Shown: in pieces, positions 1 to 30,384 of the stretch
Position numbering within the stretch: the first letter of the stretch is position 1
How the letters are laid out: each line of letters starts with the position of its first letter
From: Escherichia phage CurroJimenez_Bas106
Length of the DNA: 39,042 bases
Strand: one strand, 5' to 3'
Sequence record: PQ850599.1
Notes under the pieces: model-generated
Told to the model about the DNA's origin: nothing
The model's input: the letters and a program-made list of their open reading frames with translations, nothing else
Databases searched by the model: none
Made by a program: the position numbers and the translations under genes

Positions 1-489
1 ATGGCAGCACCAAAGGGCAACCGATTTTGGGAGGCCCGCAGTAGTCATGGGCGAAACCCTAAATTCGAATCGCCTGAGGCGCTGTGGGCTGCTTGTTGTG
101 AATACTTCGAGTGGGCTGATGATAACCCGCTATGGGAGGGTAAGGTATTTTCATATCAGGGAGAAATAATTAAGGCTAATGTCCCTAAGATGCGAGCCAT
201 GACTATTTCAGGATTGTGTACCTTCCTTGATATCACCAGGCAAACATGGGGAACCTTCCGGTCAATGGAAGGTTTTTCTGACGTCACATCACGAGCGGAA
301 GACATCATCTACGACCAGAAATTTTCTGGCGCAGCCGCTGACCTTCTCAACGCTAACATCATCGCCCGTGATTTGGGCCTCAAAGAGCAGTCGCAAGTTG
401 AAGACGTGACACCTGATAAGGGAGATCGCGATAAGCGGCGCTCTCGTATCAAGGAGCTATTCAACCGTGGAACTGGACGCGATTCTTGA
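1..489 (+). CDS. terS: terminase small subunit (P22 gp3-like)
   Basis: 162 aa ORF starting at window position 1; length and N-terminal sequence match my recollection of P22 gp3; 23-nt overlap with terL; RBS-like GTGAGA lies at the window end (39031-39036). Confidence 0.85.
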
Positions 490-1966
490 TAACTTGAGCG
501 ACGAAGAGCAAATCGAATTGCTCGAGCTACTCGAAGAAGAAGAGAACTACCGGAACACACACCTGCTATATGAATTTACGCCATACAGCAAACAGCGTGA
601 GTTCATCGACGCCGGGCATGACTATCCAGAGCGCTGTTTTATGGCTGGTAACCAGCTTGGTAAGTCATTTACTGGTGCTGCTGAAGTCGCGTTTCACCTT
701 ACCGGGCGTTATCCGGGCACAAAAGGCTATCCTGCTGATGGTAAATATGGCGGTGAGTGGAAAGGTAAGCGTTTCTATGAGCCTGTTGTTTTCTGGATTG
801 GTGGCGAGACAAACGAGACTGTAACCAAAACGACTCAACGCATCCTGTGCGGTCGTATCGAAGAGAATGATGAGCCTGGCTACGGTTCCATACCGAAAGA
901 AGACATCATTAGCTGGAAGAAGTCTCCTTTCTTTCCGAACCTTGTTGATCATCTTCTGGTTAAGCATCACACGGCTGATGGCGTTGAAGATGGCATTTCA
1001 ATCTGCTACTTCAAGCCATACTCGCAAGGCCGTGCTCGCTGGCAGGGTGACACAATCCACGGCGTGTGGTTTGACGAAGAGCCACCATACAGCATTTATG
1101 GCGAAGGTCTTACCCGTACCAACAAATACGGGCAATTCTCAATTCTGACGTTTACCCCGCTGATGGGGATGTCTGACGTTGTTACCAAGTTCCTGAAGAA
1201 TCCCAGCAAGTCGCAGAAAGTGGTCAACATGACCATCTATGACGCAGAGCACTACACCGACGAGCAGAAAGAGCAAATCATCGCATCCTATCCCGAGCAC
1301 GAGAGAGAGGCGCGTGCTCGCGGTATTCCTACGATGGGTAGCGGTCGAATCTTCCAGATACCGGAAGAGACGATTAAGTGCCAGCCGTTCGAGTGTCCTG
1401 ATCACTTCTACGTAATTGGCGGGATGGATTTCGGATGGGATCACCCACAGGCGCAGGTTCAGCTTTGGTGGGATAAGGACGCAGACACAATCTACGTTTC
1501 ACGCGTGTGGAAGGCGAAAGAAAAAACAGCCGTTCAGGCATGGGGAGCTGTTAAATCATGGGCGCATAAAGTGCCAACAGCATGGCCTCATGACGGAAAT
1601 CAGCACGAGAAGGGCGGCGGTGAGCAGCTCAAAGGGCAGTATGCAGATGCTGGTTTTATGATGTTGCAGGAGCATGCGACATGGCCTGATGGCGGTAACG
1701 CGGTGGAGCCTGGCATCACTGAATTGCGCGACATGATGCTCGATGGTCGCTTCAAAGTATTCAACACCTGTGAGCCATTCTTTGAGGAGTTCCGCCTCTA
1801 TCACCGTGATGAAAACGGGAAGATCGTCAAGCTTAACGACGACGTTCTCTCAGCTGTTCGCTATGCATACATGATGCGCCGCTTCGCCAAAATGATGCGC
1901 GACATCAAAAAACCAAAAGAGAAAAAGATACCAGCCCCAATCAGGCCCATCGCACGGAGAACTTAA
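467..1966 (+). CDS. terL: terminase large subunit (P22 gp2-like)
   Basis: 499 aa ORF, GTG start preceded by AAGGAG (451-456); same length as P22 gp2; position between terS and portal. Confidence 0.9.
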
Positions 1967-4132
1967 ATGGCCGACGAAAACAGACTCAATTCCATTCTGT
2001 GTAAGTTTGACGCAGACTGGATGGCGAGCGATGAAGCCAGAACCGAGGCGACAAATGACCTGTATTTTAGCCGAGTGTCGCAATGGGATGACTGGCTATC
2101 AAACTACACCACCCTGCAATATCGAGGACAATTCGATGTTGTCCGCCCGGTGGTCAGGAAACTGGTCGCAGAGATGCGCCGGAACCCTATCGACGTTCTC
2201 TTCCGACCCAAAGACGGCGCTAATCCTGATGCTGCCGATGTGCTGATGGGGATGTATCGTACTGATATGCGCCATAACACGGCAAAAATTGCCGTTAACG
2301 TTGGCGTTCGTGAGCAGATAGAGTCCGGCGTTGGTGCATGGCGTCTGGTCACCCAGTACGAAGACAACAACCCAACAAGCAACAATCAGGTAATCCGACG
2401 CCTGCCAATCCATGAAGCCTGCTCACACGTCATATGGGACGCCAACAGCAAGCAGATGGATAAGAGCGACGCTAAGCACTGCACGGTGATTAACGCTTTG
2501 TCACGCAATGGCTGGAAAGAGTTCGCAGAGGATTACGGTATTGATCCTGACACCTTGCCATCTTTCCAGAATCCGAACGATACATGGCTGTTTCCGTGGG
2601 TATCGAATGATGTCGTCTACGTCGCTGAGTATTACGAGGTCGAAGAGAAGAAAGAGAAAGTCTTCATCTACCGCGACCCGCTGACAGGTGAGCCGGTCAG
2701 CTATTACCAGCAGGATATCAAAGACGTCATCGACGACCTGGCTAATCGTGGATTCATTAAGGTAGCAGAGCGCAAGGTGAAGCGTCGGCGTGTGTATAAG
2801 TCGATCATCACCTGCACGCAGATACTGAAAGACCGCGAGAAGATAGCCGGAGAGCATATTCCAATCGTTCCAGTGTATGGCGAATGGTCATTCGCTGGTG
2901 ACAAGGAGTGCTACGAAGGAGTGGTAAGGCTGACGAAAGACGGTCAACGCCTTCGTAACATGATCATGTCGTTCAACGCCGATATTGTTGCTCGTTCACC
3001 GAAGAAGAAACCGACCTTCTTCCCTGAGCAAATCGAAGGCTACGAATACATGTACGGTGGAAATGATGACTATCCGTACTATCTGCAGAACAGGACCGAT
3101 GAAAACGGTAACGACCTGCCGATTGGTCCAATCTCCTACATGGAAAACCCTGAAGTGCCGCAAGCCAACGCTTACATGCTTGAGGCTGCCACCAACGCAG
3201 TGAAAGAGGTGGCTAGTCTTGGCGTGGATGCGCAGGCGGCAAATGGTCAGGTCGCTTTCGATACCGTCAATCAACTGAACATGCGGGCAGACCTTGAGAC
3301 ATACGTGTTTCAGGATAACCTGGCTACCGCAATGAGACGTGATGGCGAGATTTATGCCTCAATGGTCAACGATATTTATGACGTTCCTCGTCATGTAACG
3401 CTGACACTTGAAGATGGAAGCGAGAAAGACGTTCAACTCTATGCGCAAGTTGTCGATTACCAGTCCGGCAATGTGGTCACACTCAACGACATTCGTGGTC
3501 GCTATGAGTGCTATACGGACGTTGGGCCATCCTTCCAGAGCATGAAGGAACAGAACCGCGCAGAGATTCAGGAGTTACTCACCAAGGTTCCGCAAGGTAC
3601 TCCAGAGTTCCAGATGCTGATGCTGCAATACTTCACGCTGCTTGACGGTAAAGGCGTCGAGATGATGCGAGAGTACGCGAACAAGCAACTGGTGATGATG
3701 GGGCTGAAGAAACCAGAAACACCTGAAGAGATGGAGATGGTGCAGCAGGCACAACAACAGCCGCAGCAGCCATCAGCAGAGCAAATTCAGGCGCAGGGTA
3801 TCCTTCTGCAAGGTCAGGCTGAATTGCTCAAGGCAGAGAACCAACAGGCGCAGATTCAGGTTGAAGCTGCCAAGGTTGAAGCTCAAAACCAACTCAACGC
3901 CGCGAAGATTGCAGAAATCTTCAACAATATGGACCTCGACAAGCAGGCAGAACTGCGTGAGTACCTCAAGCTCGTAGGTCAATTCCAGCAACAGCGCAGC
4001 AAAGATGCTCGCGCTAACGCTGAGCTGCTTCTTAAAGATGCAGACCAGACTCATTCACAACGCATGGATTTCGCGAATCTTATGCGTCAAGTTCAAATCC
4101 CCTCCGGCGGAGTAGCCGAGACACCTCAATAA
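1967..4132 (+). CDS. portal protein (P22 gp1-like)
   Basis: 721 aa ORF; ATG directly after terL stop, SD ACGGAGA upstream; size and order as P22 portal. Confidence 0.9.
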
Positions 4133-23583: not shown

Positions 23584-24057
23584 CTAGAACGGAATATCCG
23601 AATCGTCGAAGTTCATAGGTGGTTCGCTGTGATCCCCCTGCTGCTGAGGTTGCTGTCTTTGTTGCTGACCGCTATTTCGCTGAGGAGAAGACTGTTCATT
23701 GCCTCCTTGCTTGCCACCAAGCATTTGCATGGTTCCACCAACGCCCACGATGACTTCGGTAGTGAACCGATCCTGTCCGCTTTGATCCTGCCATTTTCTT
23801 GTCCGCAATTTGCCTTCAAGATAAACCTCAGAGCCTTTTCGCAGATATTCGCTGGCAATTTCTGCCAGTTTCCCGCTCATTACCACGCGGTGCCACTCCG
23901 TCTGCTCCTTTTGCTCTCCAGTTTGCTTATCACGCCATTGTTCTGACGTAGCAACTGTAAGGTTTGCAAATGCCGTTCCTGATGGTGAATATCTGATTTC
24001 TGGATCATGCCCAAGGCGACCAATAATGATCACCTTATTTACGCCTCTGCTTGCCAT
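23584..24057 (-). CDS. ssb: single-stranded DNA-binding protein
   Basis: OB-fold N-terminus ([18 protein letters not shown]), Gln/Gly-rich linker and acidic tail ending DDSDIPF. Confidence 0.9.
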
Positions 24058-24765
24058 TTATGCCGCCTGTTTTAGCTCGTTAACCCTGATGTTCATTACC
24101 TGAACGCATTTAGCCTGCGCATCCTCATTGCCAGCCATTAATTGCCAGTCACGCTGATAACGCTCGATGAGTTTTTTCTTGTCAGTTTCTTTCGATGCAT
24201 AATCGCTGAAGTCTTTCAGGATTTGTTCGCAGTCAACCGATGGAGATTTCTGGTTGGTATTTTCTGGTGATGGTTTGTTATCTGATGCTGGGATTGCCCA
24301 TCCTGGCAGCGATGGAGGGAGCCAGTAAAATCCTGTTCCATCCTTCAGTTTTGCCCTGTGCCACCCCTGATTTTTATCGAGAGATGTTTGTGCGAAACCT
24401 TCCTCAAGGTTATACAGATACCGACCGATTCCCCACTGAACGGCAGCGCGCTTCATTGCACCGGAACGACCACCTTTGACGGCTTCTACCTGCGTGTTTT
24501 CAGCAGCATCCCATTTGGTTACCCATTCGGAATCAATCTTGATTGATATGCCGCATTCAACTCCGCCGTTGTTGGGAATATCGCGGTATTCATTGCGCCA
24601 TCCTGCTTTGCCGCAAACATCGTCCAGGCGTTTCATGATTGCCCGGTTCGTGACATAAGCCAGCACCATAGCCCACACCTTGCCATCGCGTGTTTTACCG
24701 CTTTGCTGTATTCGCCATTCGATATCTTCAGGGCTGAATGGCTCATCGAATTTATTCAAATCCAT
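24058..24765 (-). CDS. single-strand annealing protein: Rad52/Sak-like core with Erf-like C-terminal tail
   Basis: N-terminal region carries KRAAVQWGIGRYLY (Rad52-family signature); last ~55 aa (EQILKDFSDYASKETDKKKLIERYQRDWQL...KCVQVMNIRVNELKQAA) match my recollection of the P22 Erf C-terminus. Confidence 0.7.
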   Translation of the reverse strand: MDLNKFDEPFSPEDIEWRIQQSGKTRDGKVWAMVLAYVTNRAIMKRLDDVCGKAGWRNEYRDIPNNGGVECGISIKIDSEWVTKWDAAENTQVEAVKGGRSGAMKRAAVQWGIGRYLYNLEEGFAQTSLDKNQGWHRAKLKDGTGFYWLPPSLPGWAIPASDNKPSPENTNQKSPSVDCEQILKDFSDYASKETDKKKLIERYQRDWQLMAGNEDAQAKCVQVMNIRVNELKQAA

Positions 24766-24773
24766 AATTCACC

Positions 24774-24962
24774 TCAGAATGGTAATTCGGATGGGGAGGA
24801 AAGAAATTCGCGCTCATTCATGCGCTCTCTTTGTGCTTGCCATAAACAAAGTTGTTTCTTTGATTTATCTCCCGCTTTACGCCAGTAACGAGCCTCAGCA
24901 ATGTGATATTCTCTTTTTAATCGACTTAACTCTGGAGTTTTCGCCAGCTCTACCGGAATCAT
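24774..24962 (-). CDS. hypothetical protein (62 aa), in the position of P22 arf
   Basis: Between kil and the annealing-protein gene; 4-nt overlap with kil stop; assignment by position only. Confidence 0.4.
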   Translation of the reverse strand: MIPVELAKTPELSRLKREYHIAEARYWRKAGDKSKKQLCLWQAQRERMNEREFLSSPSELPF

Positions 24963-25072
24963 TTAGACCTCCATTTTCTGTAGGCTTCGACGGCCTCACG
25001 AAACATCTTTTCATCGCCAATAAAAGTGGCGATAGTGAATTTAGTCTGAATAGCCATAAGTGTTTTATCCAT
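24959..25072 (-). CDS. kil: Kil (host cell-division inhibitor), lambda-like
   Basis: MDKTLMAIQTKFTIATFIGDEKMFREAVEAYRKW matches the lambda Kil N-terminus; ATG overlaps cIII stop (ATGGATAA) as in lambda; the ORF-track 5' extension was not used. Confidence 0.7.
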   Translation of the reverse strand: MDKTLMAIQTKFTIATFIGDEKMFREAVEAYRKWRSK

Positions 25073-25211
25073 TTTTTGGAACTCCTGGCTGATTAAGTAC
25101 GTCGATGAGTCGTTTCCATCCGTCACGTAATTTACGGGTGATTCGTTCAAGTAAAGATTCATTTAATTGGAAGGCACCCATGCGAGCGCCTCCCGCGATT
25201 GCGTAAATCAT
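25065..25211 (-). CDS. cIII: CIII (protease inhibitor stabilising CII), lambda-like
   Basis: Manually translated 48 aa MIYAIAGGARMGAFQLNESLLERITRKLRDGWKRLIDVLNQPGVPKNG; AAGGA SD 8 nt upstream; below ORF-track threshold. Confidence 0.8.
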   Translation of the reverse strand: MIYAIAGGARMGAFQLNESLLERITRKLRDGWKRLIDVLNQPGVPKNG

Positions 25212-25235
25212 GGGTGGTTCCTTATGTTGGTTTTA

Positions 25236-26204
25236 TTAGTAGGTTATTTTTGTTGCGAATACTTTGCCTTTTACGATGGCTGTTATGATATTTTTAGCAA
25301 CATCTTCTGATGCGCCAACCTTGATAAGGTCAGCAAGTATTTTGTTATTTACTTCTTTCCGGTGAGCTTTATCCTTTGCTCTACACTCTTCTTCTTCCTT
25401 GATTCTTTTTTCTTCTGCTATTCTGGCTTGCTCTTTTGCTTCAGCCTCGCGCCGGATTCGTTCAGCCTCCTCCTGTGCTTTTCGGCGTTCTGCTTCAATT
25501 GCCGCCTGCTTTTCTCTTTCAGCTCGTTCTGCTGCCTCTTTTGCTTCGCGCTGTGCTCGTTGCTCGGCTTCAATGCGTTCACGCTCTGCACGTTCCGCTG
25601 CGGCCTTAGCTTCTGCTTCTCGCCTTGCTGCTGCTTCAATTTCGGCTTTTGCCTTTGCTTCGGCTTCTGCTCTGGCTTTCTCTTCAGCTTCTCTTTTTAA
25701 GCGTTCTTCATGCTCTCGCTTTTCCTGCTCCGCTTTGAGTCTTGCCTCTTCTCTTTGGCGGTCAAATTCGCGATCCATCAAAATAGCTATTTCATGGTCA
25801 GACTCAATTTGCTTTGCGAGAGCTTCAGCTGCTGCCTTAGCTTCTTCTTCGGCTTTAATCCGCGCCTGTTCCTCCTCATAATCAGTAAGAGGCTGGCGAG
25901 CCTTGGCTTTCAGTTCATCAAGGCGATCGCGCACTGTCTTGCGGTTGGCATCAATTAGCTTTGGAATTTCCTTCAGTTCAGCAACAAGGTCTTTGCCAAG
26001 ACCATCGAGATATGTTTTCGTCTGCGCAACTTTATACGCCAGAGAAGCGATCTCCTTTCTGCCCTTTGCCGTTGTGATATCAGGCACAAAGGACATAACT
26101 TCACGTTCAACCTTTTGAAGGATTTCTTCAATCTGGTCTGCAGACTGAAATACAGTCATTGCATTTGCTTTTTCAATAAAAACTAAGTCTGTTACTTCAC
26201 TCAT
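25236..26204 (-). CDS. hypothetical coiled-coil protein with Glu/Ala/Arg/Lys-rich low-complexity core
   Basis: Start at ATG 26204 (MSEVTDLVFIEK...) with GGAGG 5 nt upstream; ORF-track start at 26258 is a TTG running into the upstream terminator hairpin. Confidence 0.65.
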   Translation of the reverse strand: MSEVTDLVFIEKANAMTVFQSADQIEEILQKVEREVMSFVPDITTAKGRKEIASLAYKVAQTKTYLDGLGKDLVAELKEIPKLIDANRKTVRDRLDELKAKARQPLTDYEEEQARIKAEEEAKAAAEALAKQIESDHEIAILMDREFDRQREEARLKAEQEKREHEERLKREAEEKARAEAEAKAKAEIEAAARREAEAKAAAERAERERIEAEQRAQREAKEAAERAEREKQAAIEAERRKAQEEAERIRREAEAKEQARIAEEKRIKEEEECRAKDKAHRKEVNNKILADLIKVGASEDVAKNIITAIVKGKVFATKITY

Positions 26205-26216
26205 ATATCCTCCATC

Positions 26217-26243
26217 AAAAAAATCGCCCTCACATCGGAGGGC
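26217..26243 (-). terminator. rho-independent terminator (minus strand) upstream of the coiled-coil gene
   Basis: Minus strand CCCTCC-GATGTG-AGGG(C) hairpin followed by GATTTTTTTG. Confidence 0.6.
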
Positions 26244-26338
26244 AAAGAAGATTTCCAATAATCAGAACAAGTCGGCTCCTGTTTAGTTACGAGCGACATT
26301 GCTCCGTGTATTCACTCGTTGGAATGAATACACAGTGC

Positions 26339-26551
26339 TTATTCGCGAGCTTTGAGCATGGCATCAGCAATAAAGTAGGCATCATCTGCTAATTCTTTGT
26401 ACTGTGGTGAATTCTGTCCACCGCCAAAGGAATGTCCGTCCCATCTGCGCACTATTGCTGCCATAGCCTTAGCAGCGAAGTAATCACGTAATGTCGCATC
26501 ACTTGCCATTTCTGGGCGTTTGATATCTGCTTCATAAAACTCGCACATCAT
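26339..26551 (-). CDS. hypothetical protein (70 aa)
   Basis: ATGA overlap with upstream gene stop; no family recognised. Confidence 0.5.
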   Translation of the reverse strand: MMCEFYEADIKRPEMASDATLRDYFAAKAMAAIVRRWDGHSFGGGQNSPQYKELADDAYFIADAMLKARE

Positions 26552-26826
26552 TCACCTCCCAGAGCCTTGCTGATTGCTGCCTTGGCTCGTTTGTATTCGG
26601 TTAACTCTCTGCACCCTTCGTCATGCTCGTAAAGGAAGACAAGCTCTTGCAGTGCTTCAAGCAAATCAGGAGCTGCTGCTATCAGTAGCGCATCCTCCCT
26701 TTCATTTCTTGTTGCTGCTTCAATGTATGTGTCACCAATCGTCACACCATGGAACGTAGTCATCATCTCGTTGACGTTTCTAACCGTGTACTTCCATTTA
26801 CCAGGCGTACCCTTAAACTCTTTCAT
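26548..26826 (-). CDS. hypothetical protein (92 aa)
   Basis: ATG at 26826 with GAGGTGG SD; contains LLIAAAPDLLEALQ; follows a terminator. Confidence 0.5.
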   Translation of the reverse strand: MKEFKGTPGKWKYTVRNVNEMMTTFHGVTIGDTYIEAATRNEREDALLIAAAPDLLEALQELVFLYEHDEGCRELTEYKRAKAAISKALGGE

Positions 26827-26846
26827 ATCCACCTCTGTTGTTTATG

Positions 26847-26874
26847 CCAAAAATAAAGGCCGACTATGCGGCCT
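26847..26874 (-). terminator. rho-independent terminator (minus strand) after the 156-aa gene
   Basis: Minus strand AGGCCG-CATAGT-CGGCCT hairpin followed by TTATTTTT. Confidence 0.7.
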
Positions 26875-27343
26875 AGTAGAATACCCAATTTTCTGTTTCT
26901 TGGTTGTGTCCAAAGTTATATTCAATATCTGGTGTTGATGTATCAATATTCTTCATCCCATCAACAAGAGTTGATACAACAGCCAAATCTTGTTTGATTC
27001 TCATCAAATGGTATTTCTTCCGGCGCAATAAACTTTCAATGGCAAGTTTCTTCGTCGGGAACGCAAAAGATCTTTCTGCATTTTTTGCTACTTTCTTAAT
27101 TGCATATCTATTTCTCCTTTGTTTCCATTCCTGTAACCACTGATTTGGTGCTGGTTTAAAATTAACAATCCAATGCGCAGGAACCAACCATGCATAATGC
27201 TCTGTCTGATGAAAAGCTATATATTGAAGTGCGAATATTTTGATTCCATCTTCTTCAACTGTCGCCTGGAATCTCCAGAAAACAGGCATTCCATCATGTT
27301 CAGTTTCTGATTCAGGAAAAGGTACGCTCCATGATTTTGTCAT
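26873..27343 (-). CDS. hypothetical protein (156 aa), no recognised family
   Basis: GGTGAG SD 8 nt upstream; Trp-rich, no obvious transmembrane segment; in the position where lambdoid phages carry sieB/exclusion genes; stop is followed by a terminator. Confidence 0.6.
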   Translation of the reverse strand: MTKSWSVPFPESETEHDGMPVFWRFQATVEEDGIKIFALQYIAFHQTEHYAWLVPAHWIVNFKPAPNQWLQEWKQRRNRYAIKKVAKNAERSFAFPTKKLAIESLLRRKKYHLMRIKQDLAVVSTLVDGMKNIDTSTPDIEYNFGHNQETENWVFY

Positions 27344-27351
27344 ATCTCACC

Positions 27352-27516
27352 TTAAATAAGTGGTTTGCTGCGGAAATAAATCCTATCCCACCAAGTCCCG
27401 TATTTATCTATCCAGTTACACCAATCGTCGACACTCCATTTTGTTGTGTCGCATTTTGGCAACTGGCATGAATATCTACCCTCTTTGTAAAGTCGGCGTT
27501 TGACTTTCTTGAGCAT
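27352..27516 (-). CDS. hypothetical Cys/Trp-rich small protein (54 aa)
   Basis: Manually translated MLKKVKRRLYKEGRYSCQLPKCDTTKWSVDDWCNWIDKYGTWWDRIYFRSKPLI; GGTGAG SD 8 nt upstream; starts 8 nt after N stop. Confidence 0.45.
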   Translation of the reverse strand: MLKKVKRRLYKEGRYSCQLPKCDTTKWSVDDWCNWIDKYGTWWDRIYFRSKPLI

Positions 27517-27524
27517 GGCTCACC

Positions 27525-27857
27525 TCAATCGTAATAAGCTGGAATTGATTTTCCGCGTTGCTTCTGGCGGCCTGAGCAGGTCAACCCCATTTCACTGCGT
27601 GGCTTGCTGTACCATGTGCGCTGATTCTTGCGCTCAATACGCTGCAGGTTGCTTTCAATCTGTTCGTGGTATTCAGCCAGCACCGTAAGGTCTATCGGAT
27701 TCAGTGCGCTTTCTACTCGTGATTTCGGTTTGCGATTCAGCGAGAGAATAGGGCGGTTAACTGGTTTTGCGCTTACCCCAACCAACAGGGGATTTGCTGC
27801 TTTCCATTGAACCTGTTTCTCTGCGCGACGTTCGCGGCGGCGTGTTTGTGCATCCAT
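27525..27857 (-). CDS. N: antitermination protein N (lambda-type)
   Basis: 110 aa; MDAQTRRRERRAEKQVQWKAANPLLVGVSAKPVNRPILSLNRKPKSRVESALNPIDL is near-identical to lambda N as I recall it. Confidence 0.9.
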   Translation of the reverse strand: MDAQTRRRERRAEKQVQWKAANPLLVGVSAKPVNRPILSLNRKPKSRVESALNPIDLTVLAEYHEQIESNLQRIERKNQRTWYSKPRSEMGLTCSGRQKQRGKSIPAYYD

Positions 27858-28125
27858 CTGGATTCTCCTGTCAGTTAGCTTTGGTGGTGTGGTGGCTGGT
27901 AGTCTAGCTCCAGCTTGTTGAGTCTCATTCGGAGGGGTATAACCGGCACCCCAGCGATTTTTCCATGCGACAACGTGCGCGTTATGGCGGCCTTATCGCC
28001 CGCGGCTCCCCATCTCGTCCACGCTATTGCTAGCGTTGGGAGCGCTTCACCGCTCAACAGTAGGTAAGCACTTGCCAGTGACTAGCTGGCTTCACCACAC
28101 CCCAAAGCCTTCTGCTTTGAATGCT

Positions 28126-28156
28126 GCCCTTCTTCAGGGCTAAATTTTTAAGAGCC
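28126..28156 (-). promoter_or_regulatory. nutL (boxA + boxB) N-utilisation site
   Basis: Minus strand reads GGCTCTTAA (boxA-like) followed by GCCCTGAAGAAGGGC, identical to lambda nutL boxB; about 35 nt downstream of the pL start. Confidence 0.85.
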
Positions 28157-28195
28157 TCACCTTCATGGTGGTCAGTGCGTCCTGTTGATGGCTAG

Positions 28196-28259
28196 ATAAT
28201 CACAAATTGTGTTCGTGCTGTCAACACGAAATGTGATTGTTTTTATCACAACACGTGTT
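28196..28259 (-). promoter_or_regulatory. oL/pL region: three operator repeats and leftward promoter pL
   Basis: Repeats ATCACAAATTGTGTT (28199-28213), AACACGAAATGTGATT (28223-28238), ATCACAACACGTGTT (28245-28259); on the minus strand -35 TTGACA (28224-28219), 17-bp spacer, -10 GATTAT (28201-28196). Confidence 0.65.
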
Positions 28260-28301
28260 TTCATTGATTTTTAAGGTAATTTAATTTTCTTTGGGCAACA
28301 A

Positions 28302-28330
28302 AAAACCCGCCGAAGCGGGTTTGATGTTTT
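28302..28330. terminator. terminator downstream of cI (possibly bidirectional)
   Basis: CCCGC-CGAA-GCGGG hairpin with T/A runs on both sides (AAAAACCCGCCGAAGCGGGTTTGATGTTTTT). Confidence 0.7.
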
Positions 28331-28345
28331 TAAGTGGCGGGTATA

Positions 28346-28987
28346 TCAGGAGAATTTCATCATCATCTGCACTGCTACGCCGATTATCTTGCAGTTGCCG
28401 TCGATTGGGATCAACGGATAGGCAGGGTTAAGCCCTTTCAGGTATTTGTTACCGCCATCAATGATTAGCTTCTTGAACGTGGCTTCATTAGCATCTGTCA
28501 GCTTCGCAACTACCAGGCTTCCATTAACGGCTTCCTTTCCAGTGTCGAACAGAACCAGCATACCCTCAGGAACGCTAAGGCCGGTAGGAGCTGTCATTGA
28601 GTCGCCCTGAACCCTGAGCCAGAAGGCGTCACCGACAACGTGACAATCTGATTCATACCACTCATCCACTGCCTGAGGGTTGTACGGCTCTACGGCCTCA
28701 CTCCATGCACCTGCGCTAACCCAGCTAATCAACGGAAACTTTTCCCCTGGCTTGTATTGTCCCTGATAGTTGTCGCCAAAAAGCAGTTCTGCCGGAGCGA
28801 CGCCCAAAGCTTTAGCTATTACCTCTGCGTCATCAACACTAACGCTTCTGGTTCCTGATTCATAGTTGCCGATCCGAGATTGTGAAGCCCAGCCGCAAAG
28901 CTCCGCCAGAGCCTTCTGTGAAAGCCCTTTATCTTCCCGTAATCGCTTGATACGCGCGGCGATAGTTTCTGTTCTGTTCATGCGCAT
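28346..28987 (-). CDS. cI: CI-type prophage repressor (HTH N-domain, LexA/S24-like autocleavage C-domain)
   Basis: 213 aa; HTH in N-terminus; C-domain has LISWVSAGAWSEAVEPY and QGDSMTAP...ATFKKL (Ser/Lys dyad region) like P22 C2. Confidence 0.85.
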   Translation of the reverse strand: MRMNRTETIAARIKRLREDKGLSQKALAELCGWASQSRIGNYESGTRSVSVDDAEVIAKALGVAPAELLFGDNYQGQYKPGEKFPLISWVSAGAWSEAVEPYNPQAVDEWYESDCHVVGDAFWLRVQGDSMTAPTGLSVPEGMLVLFDTGKEAVNGSLVVAKLTDANEATFKKLIIDGGNKYLKGLNPAYPLIPIDGNCKIIGVAVQMMMKFS

Positions 28988-28991
28988 TTTA

Positions 28992-29059
28992 TATCACATT
29001 CCGTGGTTTAAGGCTTTACACGATTTGTGTTGACTATCAATCACAATATGTGTTTAATA
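28992..29059 (+). promoter_or_regulatory. oR/pR region: three imperfect palindromic operator repeats and rightward promoter pR
   Basis: Repeats TATCACATTCCGTGGTT (28992-29008), TTACACGATTTGTGTTG (29016-29032), ATCACAATATGTGTT (29040-29054); pR -35 TTGACT 29030-29035 and a -10-like AT-rich hexamer about 17-18 bp downstream; cro ATG at 29092. Confidence 0.7.
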
Positions 29060-29091
29060 AAGACTGAGTGAACTAGCTCTTAAGGAAACCT

Positions 29092-29307
29092 ATGAACAAC
29101 ATTGCCAACGAACGGAAAAAGCTTGGCATCACTCAATCTGCGTTAGCAGGCGCGTGTGGCTGGAACCAGTCCCGCTTAGCTAACTACGAGTCAGGTATCC
29201 GGACTCCAGATTTAGAGTCGTGCCGTCGCCTGGTAAAGGCGCTGAATAAATTGGGGAGCAAGACAACGCTAGATGGCTTGTTCCCGCCGGAACACAAAGC
29301 CGCTTAA
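29092..29307 (+). CDS. cro: Cro-like HTH repressor
   Basis: 71 aa HTH protein; AAGGA SD 6 nt upstream; divergent from cI across the operator region. Confidence 0.8.
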   Translation: MNNIANERKKLGITQSALAGACGWNQSRLANYESGIRTPDLESCRRLVKALNKLGSKTTLDGLFPPEHKAA

Positions 29308-29315
29308 GACATTCC

Positions 29316-29347
29316 CGCTCTTACACATCCCAGCCCTGAAAAAGGGC
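29316..29347 (+). promoter_or_regulatory. nutR (boxA CGCTCTTACACA + boxB GCCCTGAAAAAGGGC)
   Basis: Exact lambda nutR boxA and boxB between cro and cII; downstream leader matches the lambda tR1/cII leader. Confidence 0.9.
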
Positions 29348-29426
29348 ATCAAATTAAACCACACCTATGGTGTATGCATTTATTTGCATACATTCAATCA
29401 ATTGTTATCTAAGGAAATACTTACAT

Positions 29427-29705
29427 ATGCAACTTACAAGTACTCGCAAGAAAGCGAATGCAATTACAAGCAACATCCTGAATCGAATTGCTGTACGTGG
29501 TCAGCGAAAGGTTGTCGACGCGTTAGGGATTAATGAATCGCAAATTTCGCGATGGAAAGACAGCTTCATCCCAAAAATGGGAATGCTTCTGGCTGTTCTT
29601 GAATGGGGTGTTGAAGACGAGGAGTTGGCGGAACTGGCTAAGAAAGTAGCCAGAATGCTGACAAAAGAAAAAGCCCCGAAGAACGGCGAATTCTTCGAGG
29701 CCTGA
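29427..29705 (+). CDS. cII: CII transcriptional activator (lambda-like)
   Basis: 92 aa from ATG 29427 (AAGGA SD); KSQISRWK..IPKMGMLLAVLEWGV matches lambda CII; the upstream leader matches lambda nutR/tR1. Confidence 0.85.
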   Translation: MQLTSTRKKANAITSNILNRIAVRGQRKVVDALGINESQISRWKDSFIPKMGMLLAVLEWGVEDEELAELAKKVARMLTKEKAPKNGEFFEA

Positions 29706-29739
29706 TGTAGAAAGACTGGATCAATCCACAGGAGTAATT

Positions 29740-30384
29740 ATGACATACGAAAATGACAAATTCCAGGTTCTGAAGAGCATGAAGGTGCCAGATGATTTTA
29801 AATCAAATGGCTTTGTTTATGTGCTTTCTAATGAGTGCATGCCAGGAATTTATAAGATTGGGATGACTAAGCATTCACCAGAAGTTAGGGCTAAAGAAAT
29901 TTCAGCCTCTACTGGCGTTCCTAAGCCATTTAAGGTGATAGCAGCCTTTCATTCAAATAATCCCGCATCAGATGAAAAACTCATTCATAAAGCCTTTGCA
30001 AAAGAGAGGCTTAGTGATAATCGAGAGTTTTTCAAGCTTGAAGATAATGAGCTTTCTGAATCTCTAAATGAAATAAGGGCGCTGGTTGGCCCTGAAAGAA
30101 ATGGCGAGACGGCAGAATACGCAATTTACGACTCATTCATTTCTTTTCGCCATGAAAATGAGCTTGATCTTAATGAGGAGCTTATAGAGCAAGGTCTGGG
30201 TAGTGTAGTTGGTCATCTTCCTGCGGTGAAAAATTTCCTTATTCGCGCCGGAATTGATTACGCGAAGCAACTGATAAGCAAATATAACTCATCGATAGTT
30301 ATTAATACAGATGGCAGTGTGGTGATGGTTAAGTCTCTTGAAGCCCAATGCTTTGATGCGGAGGTTGGAAATGAGCCTGGCTGA
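29740..30384 (+). CDS. T5orf172 / GIY-YIG-like domain protein (putative nuclease), inserted between cII and O
   Basis: 214 aa; AGGAG SD; N-terminal NGFVYVLSNECMPGIYKIGMTKHSPEVRAKEI...EFFKL fits the GIY-YIG-like T5orf172 pattern; 3' end overlaps O start by 14 nt. Confidence 0.65.
   Translation: MTYENDKFQVLKSMKVPDDFKSNGFVYVLSNECMPGIYKIGMTKHSPEVRAKEISASTGVPKPFKVIAAFHSNNPASDEKLIHKAFAKERLSDNREFFKLEDNELSESLNEIRALVGPERNGETAEYAIYDSFISFRHENELDLNEELIEQGLGSVVGHLPAVKNFLIRAGIDYAKQLISKYNSSIVINTDGSVVMVKSLEAQCFDAEVGNEPG

Follow-up and report, generated by a model that had tools for sequence, protein, structure and literature searches.

The closest described counterparts of the locus analyzed here are the early-left operons of lambda and related phages, which are transcribed from the promoter pL. 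In lambda, N is followed by sieB, orf28 and ral, the tL2 terminators, ea10, and cIII; the corresponding part of phage Sf6 (NC_005344) holds genes 34-37 and the boundary sequence bsq4, and phage 933W carries L0079 just 3' of N. Most early-left genes of P22-like phages are of unknown function (PMC8022706). We analyzed this region in Escherichia phage CurroJimenez_Bas106 (sequence record PQ850599.1, 39,042 nucleotides; the whole stretch is called the window), where four small genes, orf54, orf156, orf92, and orf70, named for the lengths of their products in amino acids, lie at 26339-27516 between N and a coiled-coil gene. A sequence-only reading had presented them as a terminator-bounded cluster at a position that carries exclusion or host-modulation morons in lambdoid phages, and as the likeliest place for an undescribed small system. 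All four open reading frames (ORFs) that it listed after N are present on the minus strand. We conclude that the interval is probably a mosaic stretch of the pL operon with three independently exchangeable passenger cassettes, not one system, and that these genes probably have an accessory early role.

Independent assortment of the four genes

The 1.7-kb interval was compared with 5426 complete E. coli genomes, and no match covered 80% or more of it. Individually, orf156 was found in 598 of these genomes, in up to four copies each, and orf54 in 138; the intact orf92-orf70 pair was present in three, with partial matches in 56 that break at the orf92/orf70 junction and inside orf70. The comparison of the N-cIII interval between related genomes, which the sequence-only reading had proposed as a check, thus revealed no co-inheritance of the four genes. 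A single phage record, Dewey, covers at least 80% of the interval, and Dewey lacks orf54. The 319 IMG/VR loci, each anchored on a single one of the genes, gave a similar picture: the other three genes were mostly absent, and all four occurred together on one contig. Profile hidden Markov models applied over a 4-kb range detected the orf92 and orf70 families together in 7 of 63 distant orf70 loci and in 2 of 34 distant orf92 loci, and in the loci with both families the gene order went either way.

The interval has the anatomy of an accessory stretch, lying on the pL strand between N and cIII and 3' of pL and nutL, with boundary and terminator sequences that are common to phages carrying other genes in the slot. 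Its cargo in other prophages includes ral, Sf6 gp34, an Nmad5-family protein, and a DUF7446 protein. The prophages of NZ_CP185938 and NZ_CP191555 have either the Nmad5-family putative nucleotide-modification protein or the DUF7446 protein in the gap between N and orf156.

The alternative that all four genes, or at least two of them, act together as a single undescribed defense or exclusion system draws on their arrangement. They form an uninterrupted, closely spaced run on one strand, with 8-nucleotide gaps or overlapping stops and starts between them; the exception is a gap of about 46 nucleotides before orf92, which is mostly occupied by a terminator hairpin and its U-run. Moreover, lambda holds sieB, ral, and rex-type functions at this position, and phage Dewey and the one IMG/VR contig have most of these genes together. 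Nevertheless, each gene mostly occurs without the others among widely varying neighbors, orf54 is conserved in lytic T4-like phages, no promoter of the set's own was found, and no defense family was matched in PADLOC, Pfam, or NCBIfam. We therefore regard a single system as very improbable.

The sequences between the genes point to how the cassettes may be exchanged. The start of orf54 lies 8 nucleotides past the N stop codon, which forms part of the orf54 ribosome site (TGAGGTGAGCCATG), and the ATG of orf156 lies 8 nucleotides from the orf54 stop (AAGGTGAGATATG). The two GGTGAG Shine-Dalgarno (SD) sequences at identical spacing noted in the sequence-only reading were confirmed, since both junctions read GGTGAG-NN-ATG. 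Behind the 54-residue form of orf54, the junction TGAGGTGAGATATG leads into any of at least four different genes. The junction between N and orf54 is just as constant, and the junction motifs recur over the loci examined. The identical SD spacing is explained by conserved cassette junctions common to unrelated downstream genes. Judged by these repeated motifs, the SD and junction sequences that the cassettes have in common appear to be recombination joints rather than signs of co-regulation.

Terminators and the conserved three-hairpin element

Both terminators proposed in the sequence-only reading were recovered on the minus strand. The first, an intrinsic hairpin of tL2a type (26857-26874), has a 6-bp stem with five G-C pairs followed by UUAUUUUU; it begins within the orf156 stop codon and has a folding energy of -10.6 kcal/mol (z-score -1.6). 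The second, at 26245-26224, is the stronger of the two, with an 8-bp stem followed by U7 (-14.7 kcal/mol, z-score -2.2). Terminator-like matches are no more frequent in the 5-kb region than expected, with 8 observed and 5.5 +/- 2.2 in shuffled sequences; the two terminators are credible because they are homologous to the ral-ea10 terminator region of lambda. In lambda, this region is known as the tL2 cluster.

The strong terminator closes a non-coding element with three hairpins (26205-26338, minus strand), identified from the alignment with lambda, 933W, and Sf6. These approximately 135 nucleotides are essentially identical in the window and in the lambda ral-ea10, 933W L0079-ssb, and Sf6 gp34-gp33 spacers, and the Sf6 record annotates their counterpart as boundary sequence bsq4 plus terminator tL2A with "homology to phage lambda". 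The minimum free energy of the element is -50.5 kcal/mol (z-score -5.0). An Rfam scan of 24000-30000, the element included, returned no match, and in the RefSeq genomes listed no annotated feature underlies the match to it. The element was found in 2234 of the 5426 complete E. coli genomes, in up to six copies each, compared with 3 to 598 genomes for the four genes.

Of 332 loci searched, 62 contain the exact stem sequence of the first hairpin, which there stands ahead of different cassettes. In lambda and Sf6, the homologous hairpin stands directly upstream of the three-hairpin element, whereas in the window orf92 and orf70 lie exactly between these two parts. Since lambda and Sf6 have these parts side by side, the terminators that seem to bound a module are a conserved terminator region and not module limits. 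The proposal of one terminator-bounded small system is thus not supported, given the independent assortment of its genes, the varied neighbors of orf92 and orf156, the identity of its terminators with the ral-ea10 region, and the reuse of the cassette junctions. The stop codon of orf156 directly abuts the conserved ral-ea10 element in 65 of 80 orf156 loci, as it does in 933W. We had also considered the first hairpin as the terminator after L0079 in 933W, which proved wrong, the 933W gene directly abutting the ral-ea10 element.

Expression of the four genes

A scan of 5 kb for sigma-70-like sites revealed none upstream of the four genes, for which the promoter of their own that characterizes morons was thus not detected. 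The matches in this region were pL and a weak site within orf70 that agrees with the consensus at 9 of 12 positions, fewer than in shuffled sequences. No sigma-70-like site was found upstream of L0079 in 933W.

The weak site lies on the minus strand at 26392-26420 (TGGACA-17-AAGAAT), and the chance level for such sites is 7.3 per 5 kb in shuffles. If active, it would produce an RNA of approximately 170 nucleotides that runs over the hairpin element and ends at the strong terminator.

Strand-specific RNA sequencing of EDL933 provides expression data for the orf156 homologue, whose transcript levels parallel those of N in all 11 conditions (PMC4048457, Table S4). The homologue was approximately 45-fold upregulated with antibiotics, under which other 933W early genes were induced as well (PMC4048457). 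During growth in LB it reached 274 reads per kilobase per million (RPKM), comparable to cI at 211 (PMC4048457). The ssb gene, located beyond the terminator, rose from 64 to 3757 RPKM with antibiotics (PMC4048457, Table S4). The loss of the drop across the terminator in the antibiotic condition fits the prediction of N antitermination, and the conserved terminator region of the window is presumably N-antiterminated as well.

These data bear on the possibility that orf156, and perhaps orf54, is a true moron, acquired horizontally, expressed from the prophage, and beneficial to the lysogen, for example through exclusion or host modulation in lysogens of Shiga toxin (Stx) phages. The composition of orf156 is low in GC, a terminator follows it directly, and it alone among the four genes combines a 3' terminator with deviant composition. 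Its presence in 11% of E. coli genomes, in up to four copies each, and the basal expression of its homologue near that of cI agree with such a role. Set against these features are the lack of a promoter-like site upstream of the gene in both the window and 933W, expression that follows N throughout and rises together with the 933W early genes, a hydrophilic product without a membrane segment, and a place within the pL operon that differs between genera. We consider a moron in this strict sense rather unlikely. Regarding the earlier idea of a moron site, the position did prove to be a variable accessory slot, filled elsewhere by ral, gp34, Nmad5, or DUF7446 genes; the idea of prophage-expressed exclusion was weakened, because no promoter-like site was seen ahead of the genes, orf54 occurs in lytic T4-like phages, the proteins are hydrophilic, and the orf156 homologue shares its regulation with N and is strongly induced with antibiotics.

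Searches for function

Scans of the four proteins against Pfam, PHROGs, NCBIfam, and PADLOC yielded families of unknown function at most. None of the proteins matched a named function, those of sieB, ral, and rexA/B included, in these collections or among PDB sequences, as the sequence-only reading had supposed for sieB, ral, and rexAB. Searches of PDB sequences with single proteins and with two profiles (A3 and A4) gave nothing credible. No PADLOC match was better than E = 0.018, and the genes assort independently, so the interval does not qualify as a known type of defense system. All four proteins are hydrophilic, with negative grand average of hydropathy values, and show neither the homology nor the membrane association expected of SieB or RexA/B. 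The profile and structure searches of the proteins thus gave no known fold or function, which bears out the expectation that they lack homology to characterized proteins, and no account of function was found in the literature on L0079, DUF5484, PF27050, XkdD, and pL hotspots. Each gene is a member of an already catalogued family without an assigned function, and no new system is indicated.

The orf54 and orf156 genes

The orf54 gene (27352-27516, minus strand) encodes a 54-residue basic protein (pI 9.6) that is rich in Cys and Trp, with three and five residues, respectively. It belongs to DUF5484, scoring 45.6 bits against PF17583 (cut-off 27), and to phrog_1871. Searches with tblastn showed that it is approximately 50% identical to T4 55.4 and has homologues in approximately 976 large phage records, mostly T4-like; this occurrence argues for a role in lytic growth. 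In all 12 of the commonest variants inspected, orf54 directly follows the C-terminal codons of N. Two forms of the gene exist, of which the 45-residue form is commoner than the 54-residue form, and the last nine codons of the latter correspond to non-coding sequence downstream of the former. A short indel appears to switch orf54 between them. The 90%-identity cluster of orf54 also holds 90-residue entries named "antitermination protein N" (P0275, P0276, and others). As candidate kin of orf54 these entries were rejected, showing no visible similarity, and their presence is apparently a clustering artifact.

The orf156 gene (26873-27343, minus strand) belongs to the phrog_1636/933W L0079 family, matching phrog_1636 over residues 1-156 with E = 2.7e-112 and aligning along its length with 19 homologues. 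The middle of its product is very basic, with a pI of 11.1 for residues 61-120 and 17 Lys or Arg among these 60 residues, whereas the N-terminus is acidic and the conserved C-terminus is acidic and aromatic. Close relatives are confined to Enterobacterales. A profile search of 1.84 billion representatives detected 87 distant relatives, nearly all of them single-domain proteins of approximately 130-160 residues without a Pfam match. Distant relatives adjoin xis/int in Pectobacterium and Brenneria prophages and lie upstream of recombination genes in Rosenbergiella. The AlphaFold2 (AF2) model of the protein is weak, with a predicted local distance difference test (pLDDT) score of 60, and fold searches gave no significant match. 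An AP2/integrase-like DNA-binding motif ("RSFAFPTKKLAIESL") was considered and set aside, as no profile or fold search backs it.

One further interpretation regards orf54 and orf156 as partners of N in the immediate-early phase: as small factors produced from the very first pL transcript, they would target transcription or its termination in the host or disarm a host defense sensor. It is compatible with three observations. The distance of 8 nucleotides from the N stop to orf54 was the same in all variants inspected, and the T4 counterpart of orf54 is found in the neighborhood of gene 55; the orf156 core is strongly basic (pI 11 for residues 61-120); and neither protein gave a known fold in any search. 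We judge such a partnership unlikely. If it were true, orf156 would represent a new nucleic-acid-binding fold, one found in practically every Stx phage and in 11% of complete E. coli genomes.

The orf92 and orf70 genes

The orf92 gene (26548-26826 from ATG, minus strand) matches phrog_1273 and was tentatively assigned to the XkdD/Y8K6 family (PF27050) from the annotation of an identical protein and of homologues; an alternative GTG start at 26832 would give a product of 94 residues. A precomputed PF27050 match exists for an identical protein (P0034). The Prokaryotic Genome Annotation Pipeline (PGAP) names a 92-residue homologue "XkdD/Y8K6 family phage-associated protein", and a homologue in a Proteus phage is annotated as XkdD. 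A relationship of orf92 to Ead/Ea22 was considered and rejected, as no Pfam match to that family was obtained at E <= 0.1. The AF2 model was too weak to use (pLDDT 63), its confident part being a C-terminal helical hairpin alone.

Residues 1-60 of orf92 hardly vary. The segment 61-80 differs in length from allele to allele and is unrelated in sequence, and the ten C-terminal residues (AAISKALGxE) are again conserved. The variable segments recur with different N-terminal halves, revealing intragenic mosaicism, and the stretch coding for AAPDLLEALQ seems, from this pattern, to act as a recombination joint. The C-terminus of orf92 (...SKALGGE and stop) and an ATGATG start are common to different downstream partners. 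At least nine different genes come next after orf92 homologues in other phages. They include orf70 of two types, a 53-residue protein (as in mEp213), a 62-residue protein, orf54-like and orf156-like genes, and the coiled-coil gene directly. From our own reading of the sequences, we take others among these neighbors to be DUF551-like proteins (MEWIKCSERMP...HWMPLP) and TraR-like zinc-finger proteins.

In phage mEp213 (JQ182733, 29777-34083), two annotated N genes stand approximately 1.1 kb apart, an HK620-type gene of 90 residues and a lambda-type gene of 110 residues, with orf92 and two other small genes between them. This arrangement suggests that the N-proximal region of mEp213 is duplicated or hybrid.

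The orf70 gene (26339-26551, minus strand) encodes a small helical protein that matches the C-terminal portion of phrog_2201; the start of the gene and the stop of orf92 share 4 nucleotides (ATGA). The family is widespread, 60-100 residues long, with the pattern GGPAFP ... LRDYFAAKAM ... variable ... AYxxADAMLKAR; the orf70 of the window lacks the typical N-terminal GGPAFP motif. Both orf92 and orf70 have average GC content.

The ATGA overlap is the starting point for reading orf92 and orf70 as a two-gene module, similar to a toxin-antitoxin (TA) pair or an effector with its partner, that was inserted as a unit in the terminator cluster. A homologous pair that differs in its central regions is present in phage Sf101, and members of both families are direct neighbors in certain distant phages from environmental samples. 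However, the intact pair occurs in only three complete E. coli genomes, orf92 has many unrelated partners, and 56 of the 63 distant orf70 loci have no orf92-family gene within 4 kb, with no fixed order where both are found. Both proteins are acidic, and neither matches a TA family; the variable partners and a co-occurrence of 6-11% in distant loci are not those of a TA pair. Such a module is in our view quite improbable.

A last alternative treats some of the ORFs as non-functional remnants or as chance ORFs between conserved regulatory sequences. It could account for the missing GGPAFP motif of orf70, for the last nine codons of orf54 being non-coding in the commoner form, and for the lack of a PGAP-annotated feature under the orf54 match in the five E. 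coli genomes listed. All four families are, however, conserved across genera with invariant residues, orf54 scores above the Pfam cut-off, and the orf156 homologue is transcribed. We consider this alternative extremely improbable: the four genes are real, each belonging to a conserved family and one having a homologue transcribed in EDL933.

Proposed organization and role of the cassettes

We propose that the interval is a mosaic stretch of the pL operon with two exchange slots. Slot A would extend from the N stop codon to the tL2a-type terminator and hold orf54 and orf156 in place of sieB, orf28, and ral of lambda. Slot B would be an insertion inside the conserved terminator region and hold orf92 and orf70, which are probably translationally coupled. 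Judged from this anatomy, all four genes would be expressed solely on the pL transcript. Located ahead of any terminator, orf54 and orf156 would be immediate-early genes, transcribed along with N within the first minutes after infection or induction, whereas orf92 and orf70, behind the terminator, would be delayed-early and depend on N for read-through. The conserved stop/SD/start junctions and the terminator sequences could serve as joints for homologous recombination, allowing cassettes to be swapped between phages.

The proteins are small, hydrophilic, and devoid of enzyme motifs, and would most likely be non-essential stoichiometric binders of components of the host or of rival phages during early lytic growth. 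By analogy with Ral, P22 gp17, Gam, and Kil in comparable positions, a role in host takeover or counter-defense is most likely, and a prophage-expressed exclusion role of the four proteins is less likely.

Several observations weigh against the interpretation as freely exchangeable early cassettes. The low GC content of orf156 (36.9%, compared with 47.7% for the window) is moron-like, and the promoter scan was confined to sigma-70 consensus sites. The RNA sequencing concerns a homologue in another phage, and the multi-copy orf156 paralogues make the assignment of reads uncertain. The orf92 and orf70 families are adjacent in approximately 6-11% of distant loci, probably above chance, and there may be a loose functional link between them. 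Finally, the roles of all four proteins are inferred.

As a system, the interval would have no importance, as there is no hidden multi-gene device. The map of the two exchange slots, which are bounded by conserved junction and terminator sequences of lambda, nevertheless shows where to seek accessory cargo in thousands of E. coli prophages, and orf156/L0079, a widespread and strongly induced early gene of Stx phages, is a reasonable target for screens of counter-defense and host takeover.

Flanking features of the operon

The features around the four genes are those of a lambda-type early-left operon, and all lie on the minus strand. The pL-type promoter (28196-28224; TTGACA-17-GATTAT with TG) was detected by the promoter scan with 10 of 12 consensus matches, and its -35 region aligns with that of lambda pL. 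The nutL site (28126-28155), located by alignment with lambda, comprises a boxA-like GCTCTTA and the boxB GCCCTGAAGAAGGGC (28140-28126); leader and nutL are nearly identical to those of lambda, where Nutl is an annotated feature. The N antiterminator (27525-27857), with 110 residues, is of the lambda/Sf6 type (Pfam N36, 1.2e-25; phrog_271).

On the other side of the interval, a coiled-coil protein of 322 residues similar to Sf6 gp33 (25236-26204; phrog_1376, with Sf6 and E. coli annotations) is encoded at the ea10 position of lambda, upstream of cIII and kil. In the closest relatives, cIII, kil, and recombination genes follow downstream. The coiled-coil protein is rich in Glu, Lys, and Ala, and PGAP names some of its homologues "cell envelope biogenesis protein TolA", a label that probably reflects low-complexity similarity rather than function.

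Comparison with known systems

The early-left operon of lambda is the first point of comparison. It shares with the window the same type of N, the pL -35 region, and a nearly identical leader and nutL, and both the hairpin after the last slot-A gene and the 135-nucleotide element before the ea10 position have their homologous or nearly identical counterparts. The two differ in cargo, the window carrying orf54 and orf156 for sieB, orf28, and ral and the coiled-coil gene for ea10, and in the additional orf92-orf70 cassette that splits the terminator region.

Phage Sf6 has the same architecture and the same N, with tL2A and the boundary sequence annotated, and its gene 36 is an orf54 homologue for which the record notes similarity to T4 55.4. 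In contrast to the window, Sf6 has ral and gp34 in the place of orf156, orf92, and orf70. The relationship to 933W centers on orf156, which is approximately 98% identical to L0079 at the DNA level; L0079 likewise lies 5' of the same conserved terminator element. The N of 933W is of another type, and 933W lacks orf54, the first terminator hairpin, and the orf92-orf70 cassette.

T4 gene 55.4 resembles orf54 over approximately 40 residues, including the pattern of Cys and Trp. However, the T4 gene belongs to a strictly lytic genome and has a different gene neighborhood, and the orf54 of the window has a nine-residue C-terminal extension. The window shares with lambdoid morons the presence of extra genes between conserved operon elements and, in orf156, a deviant GC content with a terminator directly 3'. 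Unlike these morons, the four genes showed no promoter of their own, and the expression of the orf156 homologue follows that of N.

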